Below are positions 26,089 to 44,213 of a DNA stretch of 64,000 bases, one piece after another; positions within the stretch are counted from its first letter, which is position 1, and each line of letters opens with the position of its first letter. A program made the translations under genes and the position numbers. Under the pieces are notes generated by a model. It saw only the letters and a program-made list of their open reading frames with translations, was not told the origin of the DNA and did no database searches. The stretch is from assembly GCA_001770415.1 (NCBI GenBank), contig MEQX01000003.1, forward strand, positions 8,442 through 72,441, written 5' to 3'. Source of the stretch: Betaproteobacteria bacterium RIFCSPLOWO2_02_FULL_63_19 (lineage in GTDB: Bacteria; Pseudomonadota; Gammaproteobacteria; Burkholderiales; SG8-39).

Positions 26089-27111
26089 TCAGGGCCGCCA
26101 ACTCTGCAGAATGCGCATGTAGTTTCCACGTTCAAACGCCGCAGGATCGGGGCTGCGCGCCAAGTTCATGCAGCCGCGCATCTTGGAGAGCGAATCGTAG
26201 CCCCGCTCCTCGAGTACGCGTTCGAGACCCCTCCGCAGCGTTGCCAGTTGTTGCGGCCCGTGTTTGAGCAGGGCAGAAACGACCTGCACCGCGTGAGCGC
26301 CGGCCATCACGGCCTTGACGGCGTCTTCCGGCTTGTGGACGCCGCCCGAGACCGCGAGCTCGAGTTTGCGCTGCGCAGACAGAATCGCCAGCCATCGCAG
26401 TCGCAGCAGGATCTCCGACGAGTTAGAGAGATGCAGTTCATTGCGGACTTCCAGGCGCTCAATGTCGATATCGGGTTGGTAGAACCGATTGAACAGAACC
26501 AGAGCGTCGGCGCCTGCGGTTTCCAGCCCTGCGGCGAAGTGAGAAAGTGACGAGAAAAACGGCGAGAGTTTTACCGCGATCGGAATACGGATAGCCTGCT
26601 TCACGGCGCGAACGATGTCGAACGTGCGCTTCTCGACGTCTGCGCCGTCCTCCGCGGCGTTCGTGGCTACGTAGTACACGTTGAGTTCCAGCGCATCGGC
26701 GCCCGCTTGCTCCATGAGCTTCGCGTACTCGAGCCAACCCGTCGCAGTGACGCCGTTAAGCGAGGCAATGACCGGCACTTGCACCGCCGCCTTGATTCGG
26801 CGGATCTGTTCGAGGTATGCCTGCGGGCCGAGGCGGAACTCGGAGGGCCCCGGGAAGAATGAACTGGCTTCCGCAAACTCGTTGACGTGCGATTCGATGT
26901 CAAAGCGGGTGCGGCCCTGCTCGTGTTCGATCTGCTCCTCGAACAGCGAATGCATCACGATCGCTGCGGCGCCCGCGTCCTCGAGACGGCGCACCATGTC
27001 CATGTCGTCCACCATCGGCGAGGCGCCGGGCATGAAAGGATGCGGCAGCTCCAGGCCCAAATAGCGAGTTGACAGATCGATCGAAGCAGTTGTGGTTGCC
27101 GATGTGTTCAT
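26089..27111 (-). CDS. dihydroorotate-dehydrogenase-like flavoprotein (class-1 DHOD fold, PFOR-associated)
   Basis: This is the C-terminal 340 codons of the track ORF, beginning MNTSATTTASIDLSTRYLGLELPHPFMPGAS. It has a TIM-barrel DHOD-like pattern (IASLNG, ADALELN, KLSP). Its start overlaps the nifJ stop (ATGA). Confidence 0.75.
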   Translation of the reverse strand: MNTSATTTASIDLSTRYLGLELPHPFMPGASPMVDDMDMVRRLEDAGAAAIVMHSLFEEQIEHEQGRTRFDIESHVNEFAEASSFFPGPSEFRLGPQAYLEQIRRIKAAVQVPVIASLNGVTATGWLEYAKLMEQAGADALELNVYYVATNAAEDGADVEKRTFDIVRAVKQAIRIPIAVKLSPFFSSLSHFAAGLETAGADALVLFNRFYQPDIDIERLEVRNELHLSNSSEILLRLRWLAILSAQRKLELAVSGGVHKPEDAVKAVMAGAHAVQVVSALLKHGPQQLATLRRGLERVLEERGYDSLSKMRGCMNLARSPDPAAFERGNYMRILQSWRP

Positions 27112-30100: not shown

Positions 30101-30758
30101 CCCGCACCACCGGCCGGTCGGGCGACAGCCCCCGGCGACGATGGTCGGTAATGGCTTCTTCGTCCACCAGGGCGCTCAGTTCGTCGTTCGAGAGTATCGC
30201 TATCTTGGACACTTCGTGCGAAGTGCGAAACCCGTCGAAGAAGTGCAGGAAGGGTATGCGCGTTCCCAGCGTGGCCGAGTGGGCGATGGCGGCGAAGTCC
30301 TGCGCTTCCTGGACCGAGCCGGAGGCCAGCATTGCAAAACCGGTCGAGCGGCAGGCCATCACGTCCGAGTGGTCGCCGAATATCGAAAGGGCGTGCGTGG
30401 CCACGGTGCGCGCCGAGACGTGCATCACGAAAGGGGTGAGTTCGCCGGCGATCTTGAACATATTGGGGATCATCAGCAGCAGGCCCTGCGACGCGGTGAA
30501 CGTGGTCGCCAGCGCCCCGGCCTGGAGCGCCCCGTGGACCGCGCCGGCGGCGCCTCCTTCGGACTGCATTTCGGTGACCTGGGGGACCGTGCCCCAGAGG
30601 TTCTTCGCGCCCTGTGCGGCCCACTCGTCGGAATACTCGCCCATGTTGGAGGACGGTGTGATCGGATAAATGGCGATCACCTCGCTCAGGCGGTAGGCAA
30701 CCGAGGCCACGGCCTGGCTCGCATCTAGGGTTTGCATCGTCATTGGCGTAGTGCTCAT
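27108..30758 (-). CDS. nifJ: pyruvate:ferredoxin (flavodoxin) oxidoreductase
   Basis: 1216-aa protein. Contains YPITPSS, the MQSEGGAAGAVHGAL domain I motif, two ferredoxin CxxCxxCxxxCP motifs (CTQCNKCVLACP, CTGCRLCVEVCP) and the TPP motif GGDGWAYDIG. Confidence 0.95.
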   Translation of the reverse strand: MSTTPMTMQTLDASQAVASVAYRLSEVIAIYPITPSSNMGEYSDEWAAQGAKNLWGTVPQVTEMQSEGGAAGAVHGALQAGALATTFTASQGLLLMIPNMFKIAGELTPFVMHVSARTVATHALSIFGDHSDVMACRSTGFAMLASGSVQEAQDFAAIAHSATLGTRIPFLHFFDGFRTSHEVSKIAILSNDELSALVDEEAITDHRRRGLSPDRPVVRGTAQNPDVFFQAREACNGYYDACPGMVKAAMERFAAVTGRRYRLFDYVGHPEAERVIVMMGSGAETAHELVDWMASRGEKVGLLKVRLFRPFPVAEFVEALPPSTRAIAVLDRTKEPGAIGEPLYLDVVAALRDAEQRGAKKKVQVQVAGGRYGLSSKEFTPAMARAVFEELAQKQARRSFTVGIVDDVTHLSLPVDASFDIEPADVVRAVFYGLGADGTVGANKNSIKIIGEETDQFAQGYFVYDSKKSGAITISHLRFGPRPIRSSYLIRRAGFVAVHQWSFFERYDVLEMATPGGTLLINSLFAPEKLWDELPREIQQRIIDLKLKVYTIDAYDVARRAGMGGRVNTVMQTCFFALAAIFPREEAIGYIKRQIKKTYSAKGEDVVNRNYAVVDDALAHLHQVEVPAEARSEIYLPPIVSAKAPDFVKRVTAVMLSGKGDALPVSAFPVDGTWPTATAKWEKRNLALEIPQWHPVVCTQCNKCVLACPHAAIRAKVYPPELTKGAPPTFQWDEFKGKYFQGSVYTLQVAPEDCTGCRLCVEVCPARDKLNPRQKAIEMVPQGPLRAPERDNYEYFLELPESDRSKLPLNVMGTQFFEPLFEYSGACNGCGETPYVKLLTQLFGDRAMIANATGCSSIYGGNLPTTPYAANREGLGPVWSNSLFEDNAEFGLGFRLAVDQHARQAQELLSVLGADVGDALVRELLGAPQQGEAALSAQRARVAMLREKLKSSFRPEARRLELLADYLVRKSVWIVGGDGWAYDIGYGGLDHVLASGRDVNVLVMDTEVYSNTGGQQSKATPTGAAAKFAAAGKSIAKKDLGLLAMSYGSVYVGQVAFGASDAQTVKTFTEAEAYPGTSLIIAYSHCIAHGYDMAYGAAQQQLAVDTGYWPLYRYDPRHAGPGKSPLHVDSMPSIGKVIDFCRNETRFRMVEQQDPMRFRDLMHLLQHKSEERRALYEHMARPVTPVQPAPRAADPAAAAPASRQPASAVQPGQVTQ

Positions 30759-30862: not shown

Positions 30863-31370
30863 GCATTGGACAGTCAATCGCGTCGGACCGGTCCAATTTA
30901 TTGATCCTCGACCGATCGCCGCTGCACGTGTCGATCGGGGAGTCGGATGACGGCGCGGCATGGTCGTGCAGCGGTCCGTCGTCTGTTCGGCTGCAACGGG
31001 TTCGATTTCCGCCATCGCGTCGAGCGCAACACGACATTTGGCAACGGCTCCGCCTCGGAACTACCGCGCCTTGGATTCACGCTGGAAGGCACTCCGCCCC
31101 AAGGTGTCCGAATGTCGGCCGATTTCTCGAGTCCCGGGGCTCGGCCGGGACTTAATCGCGTTTCTCGATGCTGCATAGGAAAAAAATGCGGCCGGAAAGC
31201 GAATGCATGCTGTTGAAAGTATTAATCAATATTTGGTCGGACCGCCGTGGTATGTACAAGAAAAATATACTTCGGGTGCGTCACGGTACCCCTGATTGGC
31301 GCCAGACGCGTCTCGGCTATTGGATCTAAGGCATTGACTCGATTGCCGCTTTTTCGCTGATTGCAGTCTG

Positions 31371-31386
31371 TGGCATGGAGGTTGCT
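31371..31386 (+). promoter_or_regulatory. sigma-54 (-24/-12) promoter
   Basis: TGGCATGGAGGTTGCT against the consensus TGGCACG-N4-TTGCW: GG and GC have exact spacing and there is one mismatch in the -24 hexamer. It lies 45 nt upstream of the ATG at 31431. An NtrC-type activator is encoded 9 kb downstream. Confidence 0.6.
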
Positions 31387-31430
31387 GTATTTGGGTCAAA
31401 CGGAAGCGCGAATGCATCGAAGGTGGTCAC

Positions 31431-31892
31431 ATGAGCGAAAAAGCCAAAGTTCTGATCGTCGATGACCAAGAGGTGGTTCGTTTGAGCTATCTCAGGTCGC
31501 TGGGCAGCGAACACTGTAGGGTGGACGTGGCGGCAAGTGGCGAGGAAGCGCTGCTGACGATGCAGCAACGCAAATTCGATCTGGTCCTCCTCGACCTGCG
31601 GATGCCTGGTATGGACGGTATGGACGTGCTTAGGACGATCAAGCAGACGTGGCCCGACACCGAAGTGGTCATGATTACCGGATACCCCACGGTCGAGACG
31701 GCGAAAGAGGCGGTTCGGTTGGGTGCACATGGCTACCTGGCCAAACCACTCGGTCCGGACGATATCGTCAATGCGGCAAACGACGCCGTCATCCAAAAGA
31801 AGTGGACGCTGCGCAAGGACTGCGGGAATGCAGGCCTGGGCACGGGTTTGCACACCGATGAGTGGAAGAAGACCGAGGGCGCTGCTTGCTGA
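31431..31892 (+). CDS. stand-alone response-regulator receiver (CheY-like) protein
   Basis: Contains VLIVDDQ, the phospho-acceptor context LVLLDLRMPGMDG, then VVMITGY and AKP. No output domain is present. Confidence 0.85.
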   Translation: MSEKAKVLIVDDQEVVRLSYLRSLGSEHCRVDVAASGEEALLTMQQRKFDLVLLDLRMPGMDGMDVLRTIKQTWPDTEVVMITGYPTVETAKEAVRLGAHGYLAKPLGPDDIVNAANDAVIQKKWTLRKDCGNAGLGTGLHTDEWKKTEGAAC

Positions 31893-32485
31893 TCGTGTGG
31901 GCTAGATTGCCGTGCGAAGACGCCAAGGCGACGCGTGAAGCGAGTCAGGAGTCATAAATTGTTCGCGGTCGATATTGACGGGATGATCGAAAAGAGCGAC
32001 TAGCGGGGCCCTTTGGCAGGGGTCAACGCTGCAATAACTGCCGAGGAGGGGGCAGGAAGCGCTGAGCAGGCTGGGCAGCGAAAACTACGAAGTGGTTTTC
32101 ACTGGAATAAGAATGCGAATGGATGGCATGAACGGGCTGCAAGTGCCCAGGCGCGTGAACGAGGACCAACCTTGGCTCGCGTGGGCCGTTGTCATCGGTC
32201 CGGCCACGTATGTGCATGGCCGCCGCAATCCGGCGGCAGGCGTTAGCGGATTCTTCTACAAAAAGCCTTGCGCGAGCTCGGTCAAATCCCATTCGGCAAA
32301 GCTCGACCTCCCGGAGCACGCGGCGACGTCGGAATTAAGGTTGTCGCCGCGCCGGAGACGCACGCATGCTGCTGCTTCGGGGGCAGCCGGCCAGATTTCC
32401 TCACGTGAAGTCGCCAATACGACCTCCTAATGACCCCTCTAAACAATAAAGCCGTTTCGAAGCCAAGCAATTTGCGGAGGCACAC

Positions 32486-33649
32486 ATGGTTCTGCTGATC
32501 GTAGTCGTCACGATTATCGTTTTCGTAATTGTCGACTTTTCGCTGCGCGTATATCTACAGAGGAGGCGGGAATTACAGCTCAGGAAAGAACGCGAGAAGG
32601 CTCTTGACATCGGACTGAAACTGGACTTTTCGGAGGAAGCAAAGACTCTCAAGCGAGTGGAGGTCAAGGATCCAAAGGCAAGAATCTTGGCCGTCGACGA
32701 CGAGCCGATAATCCTGGACAGCTTCAGGAAGATTCTCGTCGTCGCTGGCTATAGCATCGACACGGTGGAAAAAGGGAGCGAAGCACTGGGGCTAATTTTG
32801 AAAAATGACTACGACTTCGTTTTTACAGACCTGAAGATGCCGGAAATGGACGGCCTGGAGGTAACCAAGGCAGTCAAGCACCTGCGCCCCGATATAGACG
32901 TGATAGTCATCACCGGATACGCGTCCATCGAAACCGCCGTCGAGACGATGAAGTACGGGGCGATGGACTACGTACAGAAACCATTTACCGAGGACGAACT
33001 CATCGAGTTCTTCAACAAGTCGCTCATCCGGCGCAAGGACCGGATCGAACGTCAAATGAAGCCGACGGTCCGCTTGATCACCCCATCGGTGAAGGAGTCG
33101 GCGTCAATGCACGAGTTCAATGTGCCGGCAGGGATATTCGTCTCTCAGAATCATACCTGGGTCAATATAGAGATGAACGGTACCGCGCGTGTCGGAATAG
33201 ACGATTTCGTACGCAAGATCATCGGAACGATCGATCAGGTCGCGCTCCCGAAACTGAACAAGGAAATAGAAAAGGGCGATCCGCTTTTCTCCATCACAAA
33301 AGATTCTCGAACCATGGACATCGCCTCGCCGATAAGCGGAAAAATCAGTTTGGTAAACGCCGAGCATGTCGAGCATCCGGAATGGATCGGATCAAAGCCG
33401 TTCGAGCTCAGTTGGATGGTCTGTCTCGATCCGTCGAATCTCTCCGAGGAATTGCGTTCGCTGAAGATTGGCGCAGATTCAGTCAACTGGTACAGGAAGG
33501 AAATTGACAGGTACAGCGAAATTGCAACCGCAATCGAGGGAGAAGACGCCGGTACCGGCCGACCGGAGAAGGGAGGTGACAAGGGAGGGAAACCCAGGGC
33601 AGACGAGAAATTCATGGCCGAGTTCGCTAACGCATTTCTGCTGAAATAG
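32486..33649 (+). CDS. membrane-anchored receiver domain fused to a GcvH-like (glycine-cleavage H fold) domain
   Basis: An N-terminal TM helix (LLIVVVTIIVFVIVDF) is followed by a REC domain at about 32678-33030 (ILAVDDEP, FTDLKMPEMDG, VIVITGY, QKP). The region at about 33120-33440 aligns without gaps, by eye, to E. coli GcvH (H.W, GT..VGI, LP, GD, DI..P.SG.I..VN). Confidence 0.8.
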   Translation: MVLLIVVVTIIVFVIVDFSLRVYLQRRRELQLRKEREKALDIGLKLDFSEEAKTLKRVEVKDPKARILAVDDEPIILDSFRKILVVAGYSIDTVEKGSEALGLILKNDYDFVFTDLKMPEMDGLEVTKAVKHLRPDIDVIVITGYASIETAVETMKYGAMDYVQKPFTEDELIEFFNKSLIRRKDRIERQMKPTVRLITPSVKESASMHEFNVPAGIFVSQNHTWVNIEMNGTARVGIDDFVRKIIGTIDQVALPKLNKEIEKGDPLFSITKDSRTMDIASPISGKISLVNAEHVEHPEWIGSKPFELSWMVCLDPSNLSEELRSLKIGADSVNWYRKEIDRYSEIATAIEGEDAGTGRPEKGGDKGGKPRADEKFMAEFANAFLLK

Positions 33650-33701
33650 TCGACACGGTTCGGGAAGCTGTTTGTTCGTCGATTCTCCGAGAGAGGTAGC
33701 C

Positions 33702-34220
33702 ATGATCAAATATCTTTTCGCAACGGTATCGGCAGTAATGTTTGCTGCAGCCGGCCCGCCTGCAGGGGCAGCCCCTCCAAAGGCCGCGGCGCCCGAGACG
33801 GCGGCGTCCGGCGCTGCGTCTTTGAGCGTGGTGGCGCCGGAAATACCGTCGGAAATCATTATTCCGTCTTCGGTGGGCGCGATCAGGTTCCCGCACCAGA
33901 TGCACATAAAAGATCTTTCGGTCAAGTGCGTCGACTGCCACCATCAGATAAACGCCAGGCCATTGAGCACCCCGCATCCGGACTATTTCAGCTCGACCTG
34001 GATCAACTGCAGGACTTGCCACGAGCAATCGGAGAAGCTCTCGAAGAAGGCGTTCGTCTGCTCGGAGTGCCATACGGCCCGGCCGAAAAATATCGCGGAT
34101 GAAACACTCAGCGCAAAAGTGGTGGTTCACAAACAGTGCTGGAAGTGCCACGCGGTGGGCACCGGCAAGGAGGCAAGCAAAGCCTGTGAAAAGTGCCATT
34201 CGGGCAAGAAGCGCTTCTGA
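33702..34220 (+). CDS. periplasmic c3-type multihaem cytochrome (5 CXXCH motifs)
   Basis: It has a signal peptide and the c3-like opening FPHQMHIKDLSVKCVDCHH. The five motifs are CVDCH, CRTCH, CSECH, CWKCH and CEKCH. Confidence 0.85.
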   Translation: MIKYLFATVSAVMFAAAGPPAGAAPPKAAAPETAASGAASLSVVAPEIPSEIIIPSSVGAIRFPHQMHIKDLSVKCVDCHHQINARPLSTPHPDYFSSTWINCRTCHEQSEKLSKKAFVCSECHTARPKNIADETLSAKVVVHKQCWKCHAVGTGKEASKACEKCHSGKKRF

Positions 34221-34264
34221 TCAGGGCTGTTCGATTGATTTTCGGTCTCTGGTAAGGACAGATC

Positions 34265-35149
34265 ATGGATAGAAGACGGTTTTTCGCGACTGCCGGTACC
34301 GCCGCCGGGACGCTGCTGCACATGAAGAAGTCGGAGGCCGCGAACGCCAAGGAGGGCAAGGAGTTTGTCGGCGTGCTCGTCGATACGACAAGGTGCATTG
34401 GGTGCCGAGCCTGCGAAGTTGCCTGTTCGGTGGCATGGAACAATTTTGTTCCGGACGTAAAGAATGACAACGCGCTCGATCATCGCAGAGATACCAGCGA
34501 TAAGCAGTACACGGTCGTCAATCGTTTCAAGACCGAAAAGGGAGATGTATTCGTGAAGAGGCAGTGCATGCATTGCTGGCAGGCGGCTTGTGTCGCGATG
34601 TGCCTGGTGAATGCAATGTACAAGACCAAGGAGGGACCTGTTACCTGGAATGGAGAGAAATGCCTGGGGTGCAGATTTTGCATGGTGGCCTGTCCGTTTG
34701 ACATTCCAAAAGCTGAGTATCTTTCATGGAATCCAAGAATCATGAAGTGCCACATGTGCTATGAGAGACTGCAGGAGGGAAAGAAGCCCGCATGCGTGGA
34801 AGCGTGCCCGGCCGATGCGTTGATGTTCGGTCAAAAGCGAGAACTGATGGAAATCGCACGGCATCGCGTATACAGCCACCCAGACAAATATGTGCACCAG
34901 ATATACGGCGAGCAGGAAGCCGGTGGAACAGGTTGGCTCTACCTCTCCGCCGTTCCATTCGATCAGATAGGGTTCAGAACCGATCTTGGCACGACGCCTT
35001 ATCCAGAATACACGAAACAGTTTCTGGTTTCCGTGCCGCTCGTTCTATTCGGTGTTCCGGCACTGCTGCTAGGGCTGAGCGAGCTGTCGGATAGAAAGAA
35101 TGAAGTTCGCGAAAGCGAAGGATGGACAGAGACGGGGGCGGACGAATGA
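34265..35149 (+). CDS. Tat-exported 4x[4Fe-4S] ferredoxin-like subunit (HmcB/NrfC/DsrO/HybA family) with a C-terminal TM helix
   Basis: It has the twin-arginine signal MDRRRFFATAG. Four cluster motifs are present: CIGCRACEVAC, CMHCWQAACVAMC, CLGCRFCMVACP and CHMC-X11-CVEACP. A hydrophobic tail (FLVSVPLVLFGVPALLLGL) follows. Confidence 0.9.
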   Translation: MDRRRFFATAGTAAGTLLHMKKSEAANAKEGKEFVGVLVDTTRCIGCRACEVACSVAWNNFVPDVKNDNALDHRRDTSDKQYTVVNRFKTEKGDVFVKRQCMHCWQAACVAMCLVNAMYKTKEGPVTWNGEKCLGCRFCMVACPFDIPKAEYLSWNPRIMKCHMCYERLQEGKKPACVEACPADALMFGQKRELMEIARHRVYSHPDKYVHQIYGEQEAGGTGWLYLSAVPFDQIGFRTDLGTTPYPEYTKQFLVSVPLVLFGVPALLLGLSELSDRKNEVRESEGWTETGADE

Positions 35150-36345
35150 ACACCACCGCAATTGGCACAAGCGAATTCAACCGGGTCGCGAGTTTCATTT
35201 GGCAGGAATTGAAGCCGCGGGGCAAGTGGCTTACCCCGTTCAATGTCATCTCCATTCCGATCATATTGCTCGGCATTGGAATCCTGTATTTCCGTTTTGT
35301 ATACGGGATCGGATTCGTCACCAATCTCAACCAATACTACCCGTTGGGTATCTGGATCGGATTTGACGTGGTGACCGGAGTGGCTCTTGCCGGCGGGGCC
35401 TACGTCATCACCTTCGTCGTCTATGTGATGAGAATGGAAAAATATCATTCCATAGTCAGAGTGACGGTCTTGAACGGATTGTTAGCGTACATCTTCTATG
35501 CTGGGGCACTGACACTGGATCTGGGACGGCCCTGGCACATCGTCAATCCGATCATCGGGAATTCGTTCGGCTACAACTCAGTGCTGTTCCTCGTTTCGTG
35601 GCATTTTCTGCTCTATATGCTCACGATGGCGCTGGAGTTTTCGCCGGTCGTTGCGGAATGGGCCCAGCTTGAGAAAGCGCGGAAATTTCTTTCCGGCCTG
35701 ACGCTCGGTGCGGTGATATTCGGTATTACGCTTTCTATTCTGCATCAATCCGGTCTTGGCGCCCTGTTCCTGATGGCCAAGCCGAAGATCCATCCGCTTT
35801 GGTATTCGGAATTCATACCGGTCATGTTCGTCGTGTCAAGCATTTACGCGGGACTCTCGATGATCATATTCGAGGGAACGATCAGCCACAAAGTCTTTAG
35901 AGACCTGCTTGCTGGCCAAGATCATCATCGCTATGAGGAGATCATCCTTGGTCTGGGCAAAGGTGCGGCCATCACGATGTTCGTCTATTACTTCTTCCAG
36001 GCGCTGCTGTTCATACATGAAGAACGCTGGGAACTCATAACGGATGCTTGGGGTTACTGGTATCTCCTCGAGGTCATCGGTCTGGTGCTCATACCCTGTT
36101 TCATGTACGCGTACGCGGTGCGCAACAGGAACCTCGGAATACTCAAGGTGGCGGCCGTCCTGGCCCTGCTGGGCATAATCCTCAACAGGCTGAACGTGAC
36201 CGTCATCGCGTACCGCTGGTATGACGTGGACAAGTATTACCCGTCATGGCAGGAGATCGTCGTGACGCTCACGGTGGTCTTCACCGAGATATGGATCTTC
36301 CGCTGGATTGTTACCCGCATGCCGGTCTTCGGCAAGAGACGATAG
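35146..36345 (+). CDS. NrfD-family polytopic quinone-interacting membrane subunit (HmcC/DsrP-like)
   Basis: 399-aa protein with about 10 TM segments. Its start overlaps the FeS-protein stop (ATGA). The position after a Tat-FeS subunit is the canonical NrfCD-type arrangement. Confidence 0.85.
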   Translation: MNTTAIGTSEFNRVASFIWQELKPRGKWLTPFNVISIPIILLGIGILYFRFVYGIGFVTNLNQYYPLGIWIGFDVVTGVALAGGAYVITFVVYVMRMEKYHSIVRVTVLNGLLAYIFYAGALTLDLGRPWHIVNPIIGNSFGYNSVLFLVSWHFLLYMLTMALEFSPVVAEWAQLEKARKFLSGLTLGAVIFGITLSILHQSGLGALFLMAKPKIHPLWYSEFIPVMFVVSSIYAGLSMIIFEGTISHKVFRDLLAGQDHHRYEEIILGLGKGAAITMFVYYFFQALLFIHEERWELITDAWGYWYLLEVIGLVLIPCFMYAYAVRNRNLGILKVAAVLALLGIILNRLNVTVIAYRWYDVDKYYPSWQEIVVTLTVVFTEIWIFRWIVTRMPVFGKRR

Positions 36346-36354
36346 GAGCCGCGA

Positions 36355-36533
36355 TGGAGTACTACACGTATGTAAACATATTCGAGACCAAGGGCCTGGA
36401 ATACCTCCTGTTGATGTGCTTCTTCGCCCTGTTCATCTATCTGGTGAGATACCTGTCGGGCCCCGGAAAGAAGGATTCGGCTCCCCGTGACGGGAGCGCG
36501 GCGGGCGGCCGGATGAAAGGCGCCGGGCATTGA
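36355..36533 (+). CDS. small single-TM protein (59 aa), possible accessory subunit
   Basis: The ATG lies 9 nt after the nrfD-like stop and is preceded by AGGAG. One TM helix (LEYLLLMCFFALFIYLV) is present. The C-terminal tail lies in a GC-rich patch, so the 3' end is uncertain. Confidence 0.4.
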
Positions 36534-36660
36534 CCGTGCGAGCGGAAGCCAGCGATGAGCGGCGCACCGACGACGAGCGCCGGCGGCATGCGCCGATGAG
36601 GGGCATTGTCCGGGCGCCGTTGCGCGGTCGTCGTCCGGCTGGCGAGCGCGTCGAGCACCG

Positions 36661-38532
36661 ATGAAATTCGCCGGAACCAAGATCGGCCTGAAGCTGGTCC
36701 TTGCGGTCGGCGTCATCACGATCGTCATCATCGGCGCCTTTTCCTACCTGAGCATCAACGCGCAGAGCGATGCGCTGCTCTCGCAGGCCGGAATACACGC
36801 GAACAAGCTGAGCGAGGCGATAAAGAACAGCACGCACACGAGCATGCTCGAGAACAGGAAAGACGAGATTCACGCGATCATCAACACGGTCTCGCACGAA
36901 CCGAGCATTCTCGAGATACGGATATTCAACAAGGAAGGGGTCGTCACGTTCTCGTCGCGGGAGAATTCGACCGGCAAGATGGTCGACAAGCGCGCCGAGA
37001 GCTGCTACGCATGCCACACGGAGAACCAGCCATTGCGAAGGCTTTCGATCGACAAGAGAATGCGCATCTACAGGATCAGTTCGAATTCGCCGCGCATACT
37101 GGCCGTCATCAATCCCATCTACAACGAGCCCTCGTGCTACCAGGCGGCGTGCCATGCACACCGCCGGGACCAGACGGTGCTGGGCGTGCTGGACGTAAAG
37201 ATGGACCTAAAGGACGTCGATCGGCAGATCGAAGACAGCAAACTCAGGTTGATCATCTTTGCCGCCATTGCGACTCTTGCTTTAAGCCTATTCATTGCAT
37301 ATTTCGTGAGACGGTGGGTCGGAAAGCCCGTTAGCGAACTGGTAAAAGCGACCAACCAGGTAAGCCTGGGGAACTTGAATTACACGATAGAAGACCCAGG
37401 GAAGGACGAACTGGGAATCCTGGCCACGTCCTTCAACAAGATGACGAAGAGTCTTGCGGATGCCAAGCTGCAGCTCTTCCAGGCCGACAAGATGGCTTCG
37501 TTAGGGCGGCTTGCCGCCGGCGTAGCTCACGAAATAAATAACCCGCTTACGGGTGTATTGACCTACAGCAGTTTTCTGCTTAAGCGAGTCAAGGACAATC
37601 CAGAACTGCAGGAAAACCTTGAGGTAATAGTTCGAGAAACCATACGGAGCAGGGAGATCGTAAAGAGTCTGCTCGACTTCTCACGGCAATCGATTCCCAA
37701 AAAGCATAGTGCAGACATAAGCAAGATCATCAAGAGCGCAATCGAAGTGGTTTCCAATCAGCTCGTACTCAAGGAAATCCAGCTGGATGCGCAGCTGGAT
37801 GAGTCTTTGCCGGAAATCACGGTTGACGCAAACCAGATCCAGCAGGTGCTAATCAACCTGCTGGTCAACGCAGCGGACGCGATCGGAGAGGGCGGCGGTA
37901 AGATTTCCATCGTTCCATCTCTGATTTCTCTTCCGCCGCACGGTCTGGCGAGGATCAAAGCTGCCGTTTGCCCAAAGAGGCACGACCTGATGGATAACGA
38001 AGTTCGAAGTTACGGGCTGCCGACCGTGAGGCTGAAGGCCATTTCGAAGGGGACAGAGGGGATCATCAACCTGGATCCCATTTATGGAAAGAACCGGCAC
38101 CAGTACGGTTTGGAACTGGATCAAGGAGGGGACTTGCAGTTGTCCTGCCCCCAGTGCAATACGTCATTGATAGACGAATCCATACGGTGCCCGAAATGTC
38201 GTTCGACGGTATACAGTTTCGAAACGCCCCCGGACGGGGTGCTGGAAGGCTGTACGAACCCGGACTGCGGTTGGCAACGCTGGCAGGCAATGGATGATAC
38301 CGGCCAGAAAGATTACATCGAACTGAGGATCGCGGATACGGGTCAGGGGATCCCAAAGGAGGATCTATCCAGGATATTCGAACCGTTCTTCACCACGAAG
38401 GGGCAGTACGGGAATGGCCTGGGACTCGCGGTCATATGGGGAATAATCGACAACCATAACGGAACGATCAGCGTGGAAAGTGAACTCGGCAAGGGGACGG
38501 TGTTCGTCATTCATTTGCCGATGCAGAATTGA
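36661..38532 (+). CDS. sensor histidine kinase: periplasmic loop with haem-c motifs, HAMP, HisKA, and HATPase with a large Cys-rich insertion
   Basis: TM1 and TM2 flank a loop of about 170 aa carrying CYACH (37003-37017) and CYQAACH (37135-37155). It also has a HAMP domain, the H-box GVAHEINNPL, the N-box LLVNAADA, G1 DTGQGI and G2 GNGLGL. Confidence 0.9.
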   Translation: MKFAGTKIGLKLVLAVGVITIVIIGAFSYLSINAQSDALLSQAGIHANKLSEAIKNSTHTSMLENRKDEIHAIINTVSHEPSILEIRIFNKEGVVTFSSRENSTGKMVDKRAESCYACHTENQPLRRLSIDKRMRIYRISSNSPRILAVINPIYNEPSCYQAACHAHRRDQTVLGVLDVKMDLKDVDRQIEDSKLRLIIFAAIATLALSLFIAYFVRRWVGKPVSELVKATNQVSLGNLNYTIEDPGKDELGILATSFNKMTKSLADAKLQLFQADKMASLGRLAAGVAHEINNPLTGVLTYSSFLLKRVKDNPELQENLEVIVRETIRSREIVKSLLDFSRQSIPKKHSADISKIIKSAIEVVSNQLVLKEIQLDAQLDESLPEITVDANQIQQVLINLLVNAADAIGEGGGKISIVPSLISLPPHGLARIKAAVCPKRHDLMDNEVRSYGLPTVRLKAISKGTEGIINLDPIYGKNRHQYGLELDQGGDLQLSCPQCNTSLIDESIRCPKCRSTVYSFETPPDGVLEGCTNPDCGWQRWQAMDDTGQKDYIELRIADTGQGIPKEDLSRIFEPFFTTKGQYGNGLGLAVIWGIIDNHNGTISVESELGKGTVFVIHLPMQN

Positions 38533-38549
38533 TGCCCCGATGCTGGCGG

Positions 38550-38565
38550 GGGCACGAACTATGTG
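38550..38565 (+). promoter_or_regulatory. weak sigma-54-like promoter candidate upstream of the 9-haem cytochrome gene
   Basis: GGGCACGAACTATGTG has a good -24 element (GGCACG) at correct spacing. The -12 element is TGT instead of TGC. It lies 57 nt upstream of the ATG at 38622. Confidence 0.25.
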
Positions 38566-38621
38566 ACTGCCGGATAGCGCTCGCCGCAAAAGTTATCGTG
38601 ATGCAACGAAAGAGGAGTGAA

Positions 38622-39947
38622 ATGGGCATTGGCCGGAGCAGACTGGAGACAACGGGTACGGCGTTCCACACGGAGTTTGTTGTCGCTGTCGGGATTGCGG
38701 TGTTGGCGGCAGTGCTCACTGTTGCGAGCCCGCGCGCTGGCGCCGCCGAGGGCGCGCTTTCGCAACTGGATCAGCAATGTCTGGCCTGCCATTCCGCAGA
38801 GGGACTCGAGAAGAAGCTTGATAACGGAGAGAAGCTCTCGATGCACGTGGATGGGGCGGCATTTGAGAAATCTGTGCACAACAAGATTGGATGCCCGGTC
38901 TGCCATGCCAATACCTCGTTCGAGAATCATCCTCCGGTCAAGACGAAAATCAGCAGTGTCCGCGAGTATTCGCTTTCGCAGAACAAGGTTTGCGAATCGT
39001 GTCACGCACCAATACTCAAACTGTACGAAAGCAGCATTCATGCCGCGCTTCTGCGCTCGGGGAATGCGTACGCCCCCATATGCACGGACTGCCACAGTCC
39101 CCATGCGGTGATGGCGAAAGCCGCCTATGACAAAGCAAGCGGGACTCCCTGCAGCAAGTGTCACGATCCCATTTTCAAGGCGTACGCCAGCAGTGTGCAT
39201 GGTAACGCCGGCCTGGACTGCTCGAACTGCCACCGTGCTCATGAAGTTACTGCCGCGACCGCGGGAGACCAGTTGAAGGACGCCTGTCTGGCGTGTCACC
39301 AAGGCGCCTTGGACAGCCACAAGACTTGGTTGCCGAATGCCGGCCGGCATTTCGACGCAGTGTCTTGCCCGGCCTGTCATTCGCCTAAAGCCAAGCGCAG
39401 GGTTGACCTCAGGCTATATGACAATGCAGCGCAACAGCGCGTCGCGGAAAAGAAGGGTGTGCCACAGTTCGAAAGCCGCATTCGCCTGGTCGATTCCAAG
39501 GGTTCTGGTTTGGACGCGATGGCGCTGCACAGCCTGCTTACCGGGTTCAACCGTGACGGAACGGACAACAGGACAACGCTGCGGGGCCGACTGGAGGTCA
39601 GCGACGGTGTCGACGCGCATCGACTCGTGCGAAGCAAAGGGGCGATACAGGATTGCGCCAAGTGCCACCGGCAGGGGGCCGATCCGTTCCAGAGCGTCAC
39701 GGTATCCATTGTCGGTCCGGATGGCAGGCCGGTACGCTATGGCGCCAAGCCGGAGGTCCTGAATTCGATGATTTCGGTGGATTCGGTGGGCGGCTTCTAC
39801 GCAATCGGCGGAACGAGGATCAAGCTGCTCGACTGGCTCCTGGCTCTCGCGGTGCTAGGCGGCATAGGCGTGCCGCTCGGCCATCTGACCATAAACTGGC
39901 TTGTAAAGCGATACGCGAAAAGGATCGGCGGCAAGGAGGACTCCTAG
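38622..39947 (+). CDS. membrane-anchored nonahaem cytochrome c
   Basis: The ATG is preceded by AGAGGAG. It has a signal/anchor segment and nine CXXCH motifs (CLACH, CPVCH, CESCH, CTDCH, CSKCH, CSNCH, CLACH, CPACH, CAKCH). A C-terminal TM helix (LLDWLLALAVLGGIGVPLG) is present. Confidence 0.85.
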   Translation: MGIGRSRLETTGTAFHTEFVVAVGIAVLAAVLTVASPRAGAAEGALSQLDQQCLACHSAEGLEKKLDNGEKLSMHVDGAAFEKSVHNKIGCPVCHANTSFENHPPVKTKISSVREYSLSQNKVCESCHAPILKLYESSIHAALLRSGNAYAPICTDCHSPHAVMAKAAYDKASGTPCSKCHDPIFKAYASSVHGNAGLDCSNCHRAHEVTAATAGDQLKDACLACHQGALDSHKTWLPNAGRHFDAVSCPACHSPKAKRRVDLRLYDNAAQQRVAEKKGVPQFESRIRLVDSKGSGLDAMALHSLLTGFNRDGTDNRTTLRGRLEVSDGVDAHRLVRSKGAIQDCAKCHRQGADPFQSVTVSIVGPDGRPVRYGAKPEVLNSMISVDSVGGFYAIGGTRIKLLDWLLALAVLGGIGVPLGHLTINWLVKRYAKRIGGKEDS

Positions 39948-40027
39948 GACGATACGCGATGCGGGGTTGATCAGAGCCGTGCGTCGTCCCGTCAAAGCCG
40001 AGCTCCCATAGGTAGAAGGAATACGCG

Positions 40028-40666
40028 ATGCCAAGAATATATGTTCACCCGCTTCCCGTCAGAATCTGGCACTGGATCAACGCGCTCGGATTCGTGGCGA
40101 TGATCGTCACCGGATTCCAAATACGTTACATCGGATTAATCGATCTGATGTCATTCCGGACGGCGGTGGTCTTGCACGACTGGATCGGTTTCGTACTAAT
40201 CGGCAATTTCTTTATCTGGTTACTGTTCTATCTGTTCTCAGACAAGATCAAGGTGTATCACCCCGAATTGAGCCCGATGAAGCATTTTCGCCAGAGTTTC
40301 CGGCAGGCTCTGTATTACGGCTACGGCATCTTCAAAGGTGAACCCAATCCACACCACGTTAGCGTCTATCAAAAGTTCAATCCAATGCAAAGCATGAGTT
40401 ATCAGGTCATTATGCTGCTCCTGGTGCCACTGCAGTTCTGGACCGGAGTGCTGCTGTGGGACGTCAAGCGCTTTTCGGGAATGATCGATGCGCTCGGAGG
40501 TGTACGGGTGGTAGATACGGCACACGTGCTTATCTTTATCTTCTTTTCGGGATTTATCTTCATACACGTCTACCTGGCTACGCTGGGCCACACTCGCATG
40601 GCTCACATCAAGTCAATGTTCACCGGATATGAGGACATAGACGAAGAACACCCCGCTGGCCGTTGA
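40028..40666 (+). CDS. b-type cytochrome membrane subunit (Ni/Fe-hydrogenase-cytb / PhsC / FdnI-like family)
   Basis: 212-aa protein with 4 TM segments. The family-typical opening is VRIWHWINALGFVAMIVTGFQI, with conserved His residues in TM helices (HW, HD, HVLIF, HVYLA). Confidence 0.85.
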   Translation: MPRIYVHPLPVRIWHWINALGFVAMIVTGFQIRYIGLIDLMSFRTAVVLHDWIGFVLIGNFFIWLLFYLFSDKIKVYHPELSPMKHFRQSFRQALYYGYGIFKGEPNPHHVSVYQKFNPMQSMSYQVIMLLLVPLQFWTGVLLWDVKRFSGMIDALGGVRVVDTAHVLIFIFFSGFIFIHVYLATLGHTRMAHIKSMFTGYEDIDEEHPAGR

Positions 40667-40790
40667 TCGAGGCGCGCAGGGGCGCGAGCGCAGGCGCGGC
40701 GGCCGCCGGTTTCCGCAGGTCACCGCGGGCATCCCTGGTTCGATCCGAGGCGCAAGCCTTTCCCGCCGCACGTGTGCGCGCCGCTCCGCG

Positions 40791-42215
40791 TCAGGCGGGC
40801 CGAGACTCTCCGGCATTCTGTTCGGTATCCCGGACGCGGATGCCATACTTCTTCATGAGCGCCTGGAAGTTCGCGCGCTGCATGCCGGTCTCCTCGGCAC
40901 TTCGGGTCACGTTCCATGCGTTTCTCTTCAGGGCCTCGATCACGAAAAGGCGCTCGATGCCTTCAACCGATTTCTCCCGCGCGGTCTTCTTTATCTTCTT
41001 CAGTTCGTCACTGGTTCTGGGTACGTCCAGATCGGGTTGCACCACCAATTCGACGATGTTGACCAGGTGGGCCTGACGGACCATCCGGTCGCCGGCGAGG
41101 ATCACCGCACGGTGGATGGTGTTCTCCAGCTCGCGCACGTTCCCGGGCCAGCCGTAGTTCATCAGCACGCTCATTGCGCCTTCTGAGAATTCTTCCACTT
41201 TCTTTCCAAGTTCTTCGCTGAATACCCTTAGAAAGTGGAAGGCAAGGGCGGGAATGTCGTCTTTCCGTTCGCGCAGCGGCGGCACCGTAATGGGAAAAAT
41301 ATTAATGCGGTAATAGAGGTCCTCACGGAATGTTCCATCGGCTACCATCGCCTTGAGGTCCTTATTGGTGGCGGTGATGAGCCTGAAATTGGCGGCCTGC
41401 GTCCGCGTGTCGCCTACGGCCTTGAATTCGCGTTCCTGGATGACCCGCAGTAGCTTGGCCTGGGTCGAAAGGGTGATGTTGCCTATTTCGTCCAGGAACA
41501 GGGTCCCATTGTCCGCGAGTTCAAACAACCCGCGCTTGTTGGCCACTGCGCCGGTGAACGCGCCCTTGACGTGTCCGAACATCTCACTCTCCAGCAAGTT
41601 CTCGCTCAGCGAGTTGCAGTCAACCGCGACGAAGGGCTTGTCCTTTCTGAGACTGTTGTAGTGGATCGCACGCGCGATCAGTTCCTTTCCGGTTCCGCTA
41701 TCGCCGGCGAGCATGACCGTGCTGCTGGTCGGTGCGCACTTTGCGATCAGCCGGTATACGGTCTGCATCTGCGGGCTGGCCCCGATGATGTTCTCGAAGC
41801 GGTACTTCGAACTGACTTCACTCTTGAGGTTGGTGTTCTCCTGCAGCAGTTGACGCCTCTCTAATGCGCGCTTCACCACCAGTTTCAGTTCATCCGGGTC
41901 GAAGGGCTTGGGCAGGTAGTCGAAAGCGCCCAGCTTCATCGCGCGTACCGCCGTATCAATCTGCGATAGACCGGTGACCATTATTACGTCGATGTCCGGA
42001 TGTGCTTCCTTGACCCTGCGCAGGACTTCCAGCCCGTCGATTCCAGGCATCATGATGTCCAGGATCACGAGGTCGTAGGGGGTTTCATCGATCTCTTGGA
42101 TTGCCTGCAGTCCGTCCCGTACGGCTTCGACGGTGTAATCGCCGCTGCCGAGTATGCGCAGACAGCTTCTGATGATGATTTCTTCGTCGTCGACGACCAG
42201 TATTCTGGCGCTCAT
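40791..42215 (-). CDS. sigma-54-dependent response regulator (NtrC family: REC-AAA+-Fis HTH)
   Basis: REC domain (ILVVDDE, LVILDIMMPGIDG). AAA+ domain with Walker A GDSGTGKE, the GAFTGA loop and RVIQEREF. C-terminal HTH (WNVTRSAEETGMQRANFQALMKKYGI). Confidence 0.95.
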   Translation of the reverse strand: MSARILVVDDEEIIIRSCLRILGSGDYTVEAVRDGLQAIQEIDETPYDLVILDIMMPGIDGLEVLRRVKEAHPDIDVIMVTGLSQIDTAVRAMKLGAFDYLPKPFDPDELKLVVKRALERRQLLQENTNLKSEVSSKYRFENIIGASPQMQTVYRLIAKCAPTSSTVMLAGDSGTGKELIARAIHYNSLRKDKPFVAVDCNSLSENLLESEMFGHVKGAFTGAVANKRGLFELADNGTLFLDEIGNITLSTQAKLLRVIQEREFKAVGDTRTQAANFRLITATNKDLKAMVADGTFREDLYYRINIFPITVPPLRERKDDIPALAFHFLRVFSEELGKKVEEFSEGAMSVLMNYGWPGNVRELENTIHRAVILAGDRMVRQAHLVNIVELVVQPDLDVPRTSDELKKIKKTAREKSVEGIERLFVIEALKRNAWNVTRSAEETGMQRANFQALMKKYGIRVRDTEQNAGESRPA

Positions 42216-43852
42216 TGACTGCTCCCGCTGCTCTCCATCTTTTCCGGCGTCGGCTCGATCGGCAGAAACACGCGGAAGGTCGATCCCTCACCCTCGGTGC
42301 TCTCTACCTCAATCGCGCCGCCGTGTGCCTTCACGATGCCGTGGCTCACGGACAATCCAAGTCCCGTACCGCTTCCTACCTTCTTGGAAGTGAAGAACGG
42401 GTCGAAAACGCGATGAATAATATTTTCCGGGATGCCGCAACCGGTGTCGATGACCGATATCTCCACCATGGGGACAGGCGGCGCGCCCGGTTCGGGTGGC
42501 CTCGGGTCGGGACAGCGGCGGGTGCGCACGGTAATGCCGCCTTTTTCTTCGATTGCGTGCTGCGCGTTGACGAGCAAGTTCATGATTACCTGCTTGAACA
42601 GGTCCTCATCGACCCACACCAACGGTAAGTCAGTGTCGAGTTCGAGGGTGATCTCGATATTGCGTAGGTGTGCGGGTCGCTCGATGATCCGAGTGGTGTC
42701 TTCGATGATCGGATTGAGGTCGGCAAATTTCTTTTCCGGCGGCCTTTCGCGTGCAAAATCCAGCAGCCTGCGGATGATCGCCGCGCAGCGCTTGGTTTCC
42801 CGGATGATCAGGTCCAGGTCCTCCGCGTCCGGGCTATCGTCCGGCAGCTTCTGGCGCAGCAGGTGGGCGAAGGTGAGAATACCGGTCAATGGATTGTTGA
42901 GTTCGTGGGCGATTCCCGCTGCCAGCAGACCTACGGACGCCAGTTTCTCCCCGCGAACAGCTTCGGCCTGCGCAGCGCGCAGTTCGCGGGTCCGTTTTTC
43001 CACTTTCTCTTCCAGTGTGTGAGCCCATTCGTGCAACTCCAGCCTGGATTGCCTGAGCGCTCTGGTCATGGCGTTGAACGATCCGGACAACTGTCCGAAT
43101 TCGTCGTCGCTGCGCACGGGTATTGTCTGTTCGAGGTCTCCGGAGGCAAGCCGTCTGGCACCTTCTTCCAAGTCGTTCAGGGGAACCTGAATCAGGCGAT
43201 GCACGAAGAAGGCGACCATGACAGAGGCCACAACGATGAAGCACAGCGAAAACAGGGCGATGGTCAGCGCATTGGCGCGCAATCCACGGTCGATGTCCTC
43301 CAGCGAATAGACGATATCCAGTACGCCAAGCACGGACGTGGTCTTTGCATGCTGGTGGCAGGCCGCTGTGTAGCACGAGGGCTCGTTGCGTATTACCTCC
43401 ATGCTGCCGAGCATGCGCCTGCCTTCGGGCGTAGTAAATGTCCAAGTTCGTTCATGTCTGGGCACCTGCTCCAGTGGCTGTTTGCTCTGGTGACAGTGGG
43501 AGCAGGCTTCGGCTTTGCGATCCAGCGTCTGCCCGATTTCCGATGCGTCGGTGGAATGCGTGATCTTGCCCTCTTTACTCAGGATTCGGACCTTGTCGAT
43601 GGTGCCCTTGTTGCTGACGTCGCGAATAATCCTGTCGACGTAATCGGGTTGATTCTGAAGCATCGCGTAGCGCGTGCTCTTGGTGATGACCTCGGACAAC
43701 TGGGTGACGCGGTCGGAAACGTTCGCCAGGAGTTCTTGGCGCTGATGCCAGATGACCAGTGCAACGAAGGCCGACATGACCGTCGTTAGCGCAAGTGTCA
43801 AGTACAGGGCGACCTTGAACTTGAGAGTTTCCGGACGCATGCGTGCCTTCAC
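42212..43852 (-). CDS. sensor histidine kinase, paralogue of 36661-38532, with haem-c motifs in the periplasmic loop
   Basis: It has the same architecture. CSHCH (43490-43504) and CYTAACH (43355-43375) lie at equivalent positions. HAMP, H-box GIAHELNNPL, N-box LLVNAQHA, G1 DTGCGI and G2 GTGLGL are present. Its stop overlaps the activator start (ATGA). Confidence 0.9.
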   Translation of the reverse strand: MKARMRPETLKFKVALYLTLALTTVMSAFVALVIWHQRQELLANVSDRVTQLSEVITKSTRYAMLQNQPDYVDRIIRDVSNKGTIDKVRILSKEGKITHSTDASEIGQTLDRKAEACSHCHQSKQPLEQVPRHERTWTFTTPEGRRMLGSMEVIRNEPSCYTAACHQHAKTTSVLGVLDIVYSLEDIDRGLRANALTIALFSLCFIVVASVMVAFFVHRLIQVPLNDLEEGARRLASGDLEQTIPVRSDDEFGQLSGSFNAMTRALRQSRLELHEWAHTLEEKVEKRTRELRAAQAEAVRGEKLASVGLLAAGIAHELNNPLTGILTFAHLLRQKLPDDSPDAEDLDLIIRETKRCAAIIRRLLDFARERPPEKKFADLNPIIEDTTRIIERPAHLRNIEITLELDTDLPLVWVDEDLFKQVIMNLLVNAQHAIEEKGGITVRTRRCPDPRPPEPGAPPVPMVEISVIDTGCGIPENIIHRVFDPFFTSKKVGSGTGLGLSVSHGIVKAHGGAIEVESTEGEGSTFRVFLPIEPTPEKMESSGSSQ

Positions 43853-44213
43853 CTCGCGTGATGTATCGGAGGCGATGGAAGGCTGTCGTCGCGTCTGGGA
43901 AATTCTGGGAACACCGGCTCCACGCAGTTTCGTTTCTCGATCCTCTTGTCCGACGGGTCGGATGGATGATTAGGCTAGCATTGTGACGAGAGCGGCAATT
44001 GACCCGCATCAAACCGGAAGGCGCAGCATTGCGGCCGGTGTCATGCGTGGCGTGCCCGGGCCGGCGGCATCCAACGGGGTGCATCGTCGGCACATCCGGT
44101 ATCCCGAAACCGCATCAACCGGTGACCGGTATGCCGTGTCGCTGCGGAATCCTCGGCGTATGATTCGCGAAAGACTGAATCCGGGAAAACGCAAATCTGT
44201 CGAGGTGAACGAG

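Follow-up and report, generated by a model that had tools for sequence, protein, structure and literature searches.

A probable CbcBA-family bc-type cytochrome in a betaproteobacterium, with a candidate sigma-54 promoter far upstream

In Geobacter, the inner-membrane cytochrome complex CbcBA links the quinone pool to the periplasmic cytochromes at very low redox potential. For G. sulfurreducens, Joshi et al. report that CbcBA is needed below about -0.21 V, that it is induced late via the activator BccR, and that it goes with a low growth yield; a dissipative role has been argued for it. It is through CbcBA that Geobacter respires at the thermodynamic limit, and the complex has been put forward as a marker of extracellular electron transfer. 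A 2026 review gives Geobacter CbcA a midpoint potential of -279 mV, and describes it as exchanging electrons with PpcA-family cytochromes and with CbcC. Here we compare with that system a pair of genes found in a stretch of 64,000 nucleotides (the window) of contig MEQX01000003.1 from Betaproteobacteria bacterium RIFCSPLOWO2_02_FULL_63_19. We are largely confident that the two genes, which we call cbcA-like and cbcB-like, encode an inner-membrane bc-type cytochrome of the CbcBA family, which would most likely work as in Geobacter, from quinol to periplasm, probably under sigma-54 control exerted from upstream. Table 1 collects the coordinates of the features we discuss.

The CbcB-like protein aligns over its full length with CbcB of a G. 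sulfurreducens-type reference locus (L081) at 42% identity (E-value 7e-56), and across the Geobacter CbcB proteins compared the identity is 42-45%. The CbcA-like protein matches G. sulfurreducens CbcA at 27% identity over 297 amino acids (E-value 9e-26), in an alignment that takes in a haem-free segment, the last haem, and a transmembrane (TM) helix that bears a histidine. Comparisons with another locus, from Geobacter sp. (L002), give the same figures as those with L081. The sole strong match of the CbcA-like protein in the PDB is chain 28pb (E-value 1.7e-19), where the alignment takes in haems 1-2 and 5-9 as well as the haem-free segment. Over its aligned part, 28pb has 100% identity to residues 83-284 of AAR33925.1 from G. 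sulfurreducens PCA, and we take this chain to be CbcA; the 2026 review cites a solved CbcA structure, with the identifier printed as '2BPB'. In both proteins the homology extends well past the generic haem motifs, and it is for this reason that the CbcBA identity is supported. The original prediction, made from the letters of the DNA alone, had named CbcBA as the model for this pairing, and in this it was right.

The reference locus L081 was recovered by an exact-sequence look-up and encodes the same protein as AAR33925.1. It consists of a kinase, the divergent activator BccR, two small open reading frames (ORFs), a response regulator, CbcA (349 amino acids), CbcB (218 amino acids), and the dodecahaem cytochrome CbcC, a layout that agrees with the description by Joshi et al. 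Downstream of cbcC there is a gene for a sensor-HAMP protein, and there are no iron-sulfur (FeS) or NrfD genes.

The architecture of the window's cytochrome c is the one foreseen in the original prediction, with nine CXXCH motifs, an N-terminal signal, a C-terminal TM helix, and a long haem-free segment (predicted at about 100 residues) between haems 8 and 9. The gene starts at the ATG at 38622, which has AGGAG in front of it, the TTG at 38529 only opening the longest ORF, and a 100% identical database protein of 441 amino acids (P0001) is filed under 'Betaproteobacteria bacterium RIFCSPLOWO2_12_FULL_63_13'. The first cysteines of the nine motifs stand at residues 53, 91, 124, 154, 177, 200, 222, 249, and 345; motifs 8 and 9 are thus 96 residues apart from Cys to Cys, with 91 haem-free residues between them (254-344). 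The signal is hydrophobic and occupies residues 12-41, with AGA-AE, and the C-terminal TM helix, residues 400-424, has His421 within it. In an alignment of 37 sequences, nine histidines that are not part of a motif are invariant or almost invariant (H86, H103, H140, H161, H193, H207, H233, H243, and H333). They match the nine haems in number, and are sufficient for bis-His ligation of every one of them.

Residues 116-168 and 169-215 of the CbcA-like protein resemble each other, with a score of 94 against a shuffle mean of 24 (standard deviation 5), a score that is inflated by the CXXCH motifs common to both halves. The two extra haems of this protein look like a duplicated di-haem unit. In Geobacter CbcA (L002 9902-10969, L081 10001-11050) the haem-free segment holds an EF-hand-like loop, for instance DNNGDGKISLSE, and some Geobacter-type homologues have a precomputed EF-hand Pfam match. 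The window's CbcA-like protein has DSKGSGLDAMAL at about residues 290-310, which aligns to that loop and is degenerate, the consensus positions having been lost.

The cytochrome b that follows, after a spacer of 80 nucleotides (nt) that includes a ribosome-binding site, matches PF01292 (E-value 2.3e-26) and has the four hydrophobic helices that had been predicted for it. Four histidines, His15, His50, His166, and His180, occur without exception in 42 sequences, and they correspond in alignment to those of E. coli HyaC. In CbcB, three conserved histidines were counted by Joshi et al., who proposed that the fourth ligand of the b haems comes from the CbcA helix; in the present alignment there are four conserved histidines in CbcB plus one in the CbcA helix. 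A PDB search with the single cytochrome b sequence gives no match, and a profile of 14 cytochrome b sequences gives HyaC (4gd3) as the sole match (E-value 0.0093). Against relatives, the ratio of non-synonymous to synonymous substitution rates (dN/dS) is 0.04-0.10 for cbcB and 0.14-0.26 for cbcA, values that are approximate because dS is near saturation; both genes are under purifying selection.

Next to cbcB, in convergent orientation, lies the NtrC-type activator gene that the original prediction had noticed, and its product shares 54% identity with BccR of L081 from end to end (503 bits). The kinase co-transcribed with the activator (HK2) is 42% identical to the kinase beside bccR in L081 (E-value 1e-138), and this match includes the sensor domain. 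The other kinase, HK1, lies directly upstream of cbcA and is 36% identical to HK2; its sensor and HAMP part also matches the sensor-HAMP protein downstream of cbcC in L081 (29%, E-value 1e-39). The periplasmic domains of both kinases carry a CXXCH and a CX4CH motif, which suggests that they may sense redox through haem. Within the ATPase domain of HK1 there is a Cys-rich insertion of about 135 amino acids (residues ~414-552, positions 37900-38316; CPQC...CPKC, CTNPDC), which has a weak Pfam double-zinc-ribbon match and is absent from its paralogue HK2.

With regard to the promoter, we count mismatches against the sigma-54 consensus TGGCAC-N5-TTGCW. The site upstream of the response regulator RR1, TGGCATGGAGGTTGCT, is the sole one-mismatch site in the window, and the best. 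RR1 orthologues (56-64% identity) head the cluster in relatives, and in 20 of 22 related loci TGGCAYGG-N3-TTGCW occurs ~50-130 nt, mostly ~50-70 nt, upstream of the RR1 orthologue. In L081, TGGCAT-N5-GTGCA is found 48 nt before the operon's first small ORF. By position, both the L081 site and the window site agree with the sigma-54 promoter that Joshi et al. describe for the Geobacter cbcBA operon, whose sigma-54 dependence through an activator encoded nearby is reported there just as the original prediction stated it. Further upstream, the inverted repeat TGTACAAGAAAAATATAC is the only match to TGTAYA-N5-8-TRTAC in the window. In the 1.41 Mb of loci that we fetched, this pattern occurs 28 times, nearly all of them in cbc regulatory regions, including L081 at 8637 (TGTATATTTTTTTATAC) and the same position in nine proteobacterial loci. 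The repeat is likely a candidate binding site of the BccR-like activator.

From RR1 to cbcB, all genes of the window run in the same direction, with short spacers save at a pseudogene remnant (RR2). Sigma-70-like and terminator-like matches are at or below shuffle expectation, the region in front of the REC-GcvH gene holds no -24/-12 site that is conserved, and the gap between the NrfD-like gene and HK1 has no consensus sigma-54 site. Because the genes are co-directional, the spacers short, and no convincing terminator is present, we read the cluster as probably one long sigma-54 transcript. Our best guess is that the site at 31371-31386, which lies 7.2 kb upstream of cbcA, probably drives all the genes between RR1 and cbcB, an FeS-NrfD module and HK1 included.

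Table 1. Features of the window that bear on the cbcAB locus, by position in the window.
Feature	Position	Strand	Description
Inverted repeat TGTACAAGAAAAATATAC	31253..31270	+	~100-118 nt upstream of the -24 element
Sigma-54 (-24/-12) promoter candidate TGGCATGGAGGTTGCT	31371..31386	+	45 nt upstream of RR1
Single-domain response regulator RR1	31431..31892	+	Response_reg, E-value 4e-32; first gene of the co-directional cluster
Decayed second response-regulator gene RR2	32050..32331	+	tblastn with relatives' intact RR2, E-value 2e-16 to 4e-13
Module 1 insertion	32486..36533	+	Between the response-regulator genes and HK1-cbcA
TM-REC-GcvH-like protein	32486-33649	+	Pfam GCV_H, E-value 1.7e-19
5-haem c7/c3-type cytochrome	33672-34220	+	
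HmcB/HybA-like FeS protein	34265-35149	+	
HmcC/HybB NrfD-like membrane protein	35122-36345	+	
59-amino-acid hydrophobic ORF (MEYYTYVNIFETKGLEYLLL...)	36354-36533	+	Directly after the NrfD-like gene; conserved in L016, L037, L038
Sensor histidine kinase HK1	36661..38532	+	HAMP, HisKA, HATPase_c; periplasmic domain with CXXCH and CX4CH
Sigma-54-like element of the original prediction (GGGCACGAACTATGTG)	38550..38565	+	Judged no real feature
cbcA-like gene	38622..39947	+	441-amino-acid periplasmic nine-haem cytochrome c; signal peptide, haem-free segment, C-terminal TM helix
cbcB-like gene	40028..40666	+	212-amino-acid, 4-TM cytochrome b, PF01292
BccR-like sigma-54 enhancer-binding response regulator	40791..42215	-	REC, Sigma54_activat (E-value 5e-69), HTH_8; convergent with cbcB
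Sensor histidine kinase HK2	42212..43852	-	CXXCH and CX4CH in periplasmic domain; co-transcribed with the activator

How the complex would work can be proposed by analogy with Geobacter. CbcB would be a four-helix, probably di-haem cytochrome b that oxidises quinol from the pool. CbcA, with haem presumably in all nine motifs, would form a complex with CbcB, held on it by the His-bearing C-terminal helix, which would bring the last c haem close to the outer of the b haems. Electrons would then pass from the b haems through the nine-haem chain of CbcA to soluble periplasmic cytochromes as the partner. The complex would serve as a low-yield electron outlet under strongly reducing conditions in the periplasm or at the acceptors, and the two haem-motif kinases and the BccR-type activator would act on the sigma-54 promoter at 31371-31386.

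Several observations weigh against this reading, in whole or in part. The window protein has nine haems, and Geobacter CbcA has seven. The window's activator and kinase are convergent with the cytochrome genes and downstream of them, and in Geobacter they are divergent and upstream. RR1 matches Geobacter GSU0596 weakly (19%, E-value 5e-4), so that their orthology is unclear. An AlphaFold2 model of the nine-haem protein, from the 37-sequence alignment, has a predicted local distance difference test (pLDDT) score of 42.8, and is too poor for use. The window shows no outer-membrane conduit, and no other multihaem cytochrome besides the 5-haem protein. The roughly 30 proteobacterial loci to which we compare this one all belong to metagenome-assembled genomes. 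With respect to control, in locus L016 (12492-13110, minus strand) RR1 is found past the end of cbcB and on the other strand, together with the inverted repeat and a perfect sigma-54 promoter (TGGCACGGACGTTGCA), and it is the kinase and activator genes that stand immediately before the long unit. This long unit of L016 must then be driven in some other way, and it is this arrangement that makes read-through over 9.3 kb in the window only a best guess. Operon wiring thus varies within the clade. Finally, Betaproteobacteria usually use ubiquinone. If ubiquinone is the quinone here, oxidation of the quinol by low-potential haems would be unfavourable, and the direction of electron flow could reverse.

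That reversal is the alternative that survives best, and we hold it as possible, although doubtful. The same complex would then carry electrons from reduced periplasmic cytochromes to quinone, as an uptake route instead of an outlet. Possible ultimate sources are Fe(II), reduced humics, a partner cell, and the partners of the FeS-NrfD module. Reverse flow has been proposed for the CbcBA of Seep-SRB2, horizontally acquired and highly expressed in methane-oxidising syntrophy. It would also fit with the very low midpoint of Geobacter CbcA (-279 mV), with the absence of an extracellular conduit in the 64-kb window, and with the probable co-transcription with a second cytochrome c/quinone module, which suggests traffic in both directions. 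Against it, such genetics as the family has point only to oxidation of quinol and export of electrons, and for Seep-SRB2 reverse flow stands as a proposal. Export from quinol to the periplasm is the direction that we hold more likely, and direction is the weakest point of our reading.

How widely the locus occurs bears on where it comes from. In a scan of species-representative genomes we find at least 290 relatives, and a search of 1.84 billion representative proteins gives 116 at E-value <= 1e-30 and 788 at E-value <= 1e-10. Among the matches listed there are about 30 loci from Alpha-, Beta-, and Gammaproteobacteria in which RR1, RR2, cbcA, and cbcB are accompanied by a converging activator and kinase; their titles include Burkholderiales, Rhodocyclaceae, Sulfuritalea, Sterolibacterium, Ideonella, Xanthobacteraceae, Beijerinckiaceae, and Roseiarcus. 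The activator is linked to cbcAB in most of those with enough contig, and the order, cbcA then cbcB, is identical in all loci compared. Across some 40 CbcA homologues, the haem count is seven in Geobacterales, nine in Seep-SRB2, and nine in the proteobacterial clade, save for two loci of that clade with seven and one frameshifted copy that keeps eight motifs. In all intact copies the last haem follows a gap of 93-101 residues, and the C-terminal helix has its histidine.

Joshi et al. described homologues in Deltaproteobacteria, Calditrichaeota, Bacteroidetes, Verrucomicrobia, and Chloroflexi. Seep-SRB2 joined the known hosts of cbcBA later, and its nine-haem proteins are called CbcBA in the literature. 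In the CbcBA literature that we examined, we find no description of the Alpha-, Beta-, and Gammaproteobacterial clade as a host of cbcBA. This is, then, a known family whose host clade and operon context are undescribed in that literature.

Individual loci of this set have peculiarities of their own. CbcA of L023 and of L043 has a frameshifted C-terminus, for which assembly errors or pseudogenes are possible; in L052 (Maridesulfovibrio) cbcA and cbcB are fused into one protein. L082, a Logan contig of 10,054 bp, contains an inverted duplication of a cbc operon of the G. sulfurreducens type, so that bccR is present twice, and is probably an assembly artefact.

The cluster from 31200 to 43900 is the 12.7-kb stretch of the window with the lowest guanine-plus-cytosine (GC) content, 0.561 versus 0.61-0.625 in the flanks, and this together with the patchy spread of the family suggests that it was acquired by horizontal transfer. 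Could it be an acquired island that is now decaying and has no function in this genome? The low GC would suit such a history, and one response-regulator gene, RR2, is indeed a remnant: its N-terminus is gone and its acceptor Asp has been replaced, and in relatives it is intact as a REC domain with C-terminal hydrophobic repeats. But all the other ORFs are intact, the ligand residues are all present, the promoter and the inverted repeat are retained, and cbcA and cbcB have dN/dS values of 0.04-0.26 against relatives. We consider decay very unlikely.

Even less credible is that cbcA-cbcB would be transcribed separately, from a sigma-54 promoter of its own. The original prediction had pointed to GGGCACG-N4-ATGT, at 38550-38565, as a sigma-54-like element with an imperfect -12, and had suggested an internal promoter at about 38.55 kb. 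The string is there, in the 89-nt spacer between the HK1 stop and the cbcA start, GGGCAC included, and its -12 is imperfect as said; it is the promoter that does not stand. The element has four mismatches to the consensus, lacks the GC of the -12, and is equalled or bettered by 1,517 sites in the window, and is for that reason at the level expected by chance. Within 400 nt upstream of cbcA there is no -24/-12 element in the window, nor does one recur there among the 31 related loci, of which a few show weak matches in isolation; between relatives, the spacer from HK1 to cbcA fails to align. The unit of L016, which cannot depend on the RR1 promoter, does indicate that internal starts are possible in principle, but no convincing terminator precedes cbcA here, the only plus-strand match being a weak five-pair stem inside the 3' end of HK1. 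The operon model of the locus is corrected, probably to a single conserved sigma-54 promoter far upstream with none internal, and this shows experimenters where to look.

The weakest alternative, to which we give practically no credence, is a generic membrane anchor like PhsC, FdnI, or the hydrogenase cytochrome b, one that serves some other periplasmic reductase or dehydrogenase and sits beside an unrelated multihaem cytochrome: these three are the best NCBIfam matches of the cytochrome b, and HyaC its sole PDB relative by profile, but all three scores fall under their curated cut-offs, no molybdopterin, hydrogenase, or formate dehydrogenase catalytic genes occur at 27-45 kb, Geobacter CbcB is a much nearer relative of the protein (42-45%), and its pairing with a CbcA-type cytochrome is kept across phyla and fused in some lineages, so that these comparisons already contradict it. 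Of the original assignment to the PhsC/FdnI/hydrogenase cytochrome b family, membership in PF01292 stands. For PhsC, NF011582 scores 120.5 (cut-off 204) and there is no molybdopterin subunit nearby; for the [NiFe]-hydrogenase cytochrome b, TIGR02125 scores 70.2 (cut-off 121.5) with no hydrogenase genes at 27-45 kb; for FdnI, TIGR01583 scores 42.1 (cut-off 115.9) with no formate dehydrogenase genes in the same interval. An identity as NapC/NirT/CymA is rejected as well, as TIGR02161 scores 19 bits with a cut-off of 310.6, and the membrane anchor is C-terminal here and N-terminal in those tetrahaem proteins. The CbcBA identity is the one that we retain.

Between the response-regulator genes and HK1-cbcA the window carries an insertion, module 1, which among the fetched relatives is found at this place only in L016, L037, and L038. 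(In L030, only the 3' part of HK1 is seen, directly upstream of cbcA, at the contig end.) Its FeS-NrfD portion, 33672-36345, has NCBIfam scores of 333 and 381 bits, under the equivalog cut-offs, and is probably a second cytochrome c/quinone link co-transcribed with cbcAB. The 59-amino-acid ORF that follows may correspond to the small HmcD/NhcD subunit of sulfate reducers. We reject module 1 as the counterpart of Geobacter CbcC/D/E, as the Geobacter locus has a dodecahaem CbcC and is without FeS/NrfD genes; the similarity of the 5-haem protein to CbcC (E-value 5e-6) is generic. The first protein of the module, at 32486-33649, is an unusual fusion of an N-terminal TM helix, a receiver, and a glycine-cleavage H-like domain, with 71-77% identity in L016, L037, and L038. 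Divergent from the cluster, at 27108-30758 on the minus strand, there is a gene for a pyruvate:ferredoxin/flavodoxin oxidoreductase of 1,216 amino acids, which hints at an anaerobic or facultative host.

What the locus might mean depends on how far the comparison is taken. Some 30 uncultured proteobacterial species among the matches listed have the whole unit, that is cytochromes, activator, kinase, promoter, and repeat, and its presence in Alpha-, Beta-, and Gammaproteobacteria implies that low-potential electron handling may occur in common soil and aquifer lineages. A more speculative proposal, which we put forward tentatively, is that the nine-haem clade travels together with its activator, haem-motif kinases, and sigma-54 promoter, and has passed by horizontal transfer between Alpha-, Beta-, and Gammaproteobacteria of soil, peat, and aquifers, all of them uncultured and probably ubiquinone-based, to which it may provide a redox-sensed gate between the quinone pool and periplasmic cytochromes. 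If true, in genomes such as this one, where co-transcription with the FeS-NrfD module is probable, CbcBA and FeS-NrfD could act as a pair, one in and one out, for reversible electron exchange with the periplasm or the outside of the cell, in lineages that are not regarded as electroactive.

Among the known systems, Geobacter CbcL resembles the window's complex in being an inner-membrane b and c cytochrome whose c haems number nine; it oxidises menaquinol in extracellular electron transfer. It is set apart by its description in Joshi et al.: a single polypeptide with six TM helices, constitutive, and without sequence homology to CbcBA. With HyaC (PDB 4gd3), FdnI, and PhsC, the cytochrome b has in common the PF01292 fold family and four histidines at equivalent positions, and in hydrogenases too the partner subunit supplies a C-terminal TM helix to the cytochrome b. 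The similarity to HyaC is remote (the profile E-value of 0.0093), and those proteins have a catalytic subunit as partner where the window has a multihaem cytochrome.

The syntrophic sulfate reducers of Seep-SRB2, whose CbcBA is regarded as horizontally acquired, have a nine-haem CbcA of the same C-terminal architecture, followed by a CbcB that is 44-47% identical to that of the window. The spacing of the haems is different (34, 22, 22, 19, 22, 24, 25, and 100 in Seep-SRB2; 38, 33, 30, 23, 23, 22, 27, and 96 in the window), from which the extra haems may have independent origins, and the Seep-SRB2 loci, unlike the window, have no BccR-like activator alongside.

The closest described system is CbcBA of G. 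sulfurreducens (GSU0593-GSU0594). Its host is not a betaproteobacterium, as the window's is; its leader genes are not separated from cbcA by an Hmc/Nhc-like FeS-NrfD module and a second kinase; and it has the dodecahaem CbcC, in place of which the window has the 5-haem c7/c3-type cytochrome. What the two loci have in common is a 4-TM cytochrome b and a multihaem cytochrome c in which a haem-free segment is followed by the final haem and a His-bearing helix, encoded in the order cbcA then cbcB. They also have in common a BccR-type activator (BccR is GSU0598) with an adjoining haem-motif kinase. A sigma-54 promoter, in the window a candidate, with a similar inverted repeat upstream of it, lies before a small response-regulator gene, which heads the operon in Geobacter and the co-directional cluster in the window.

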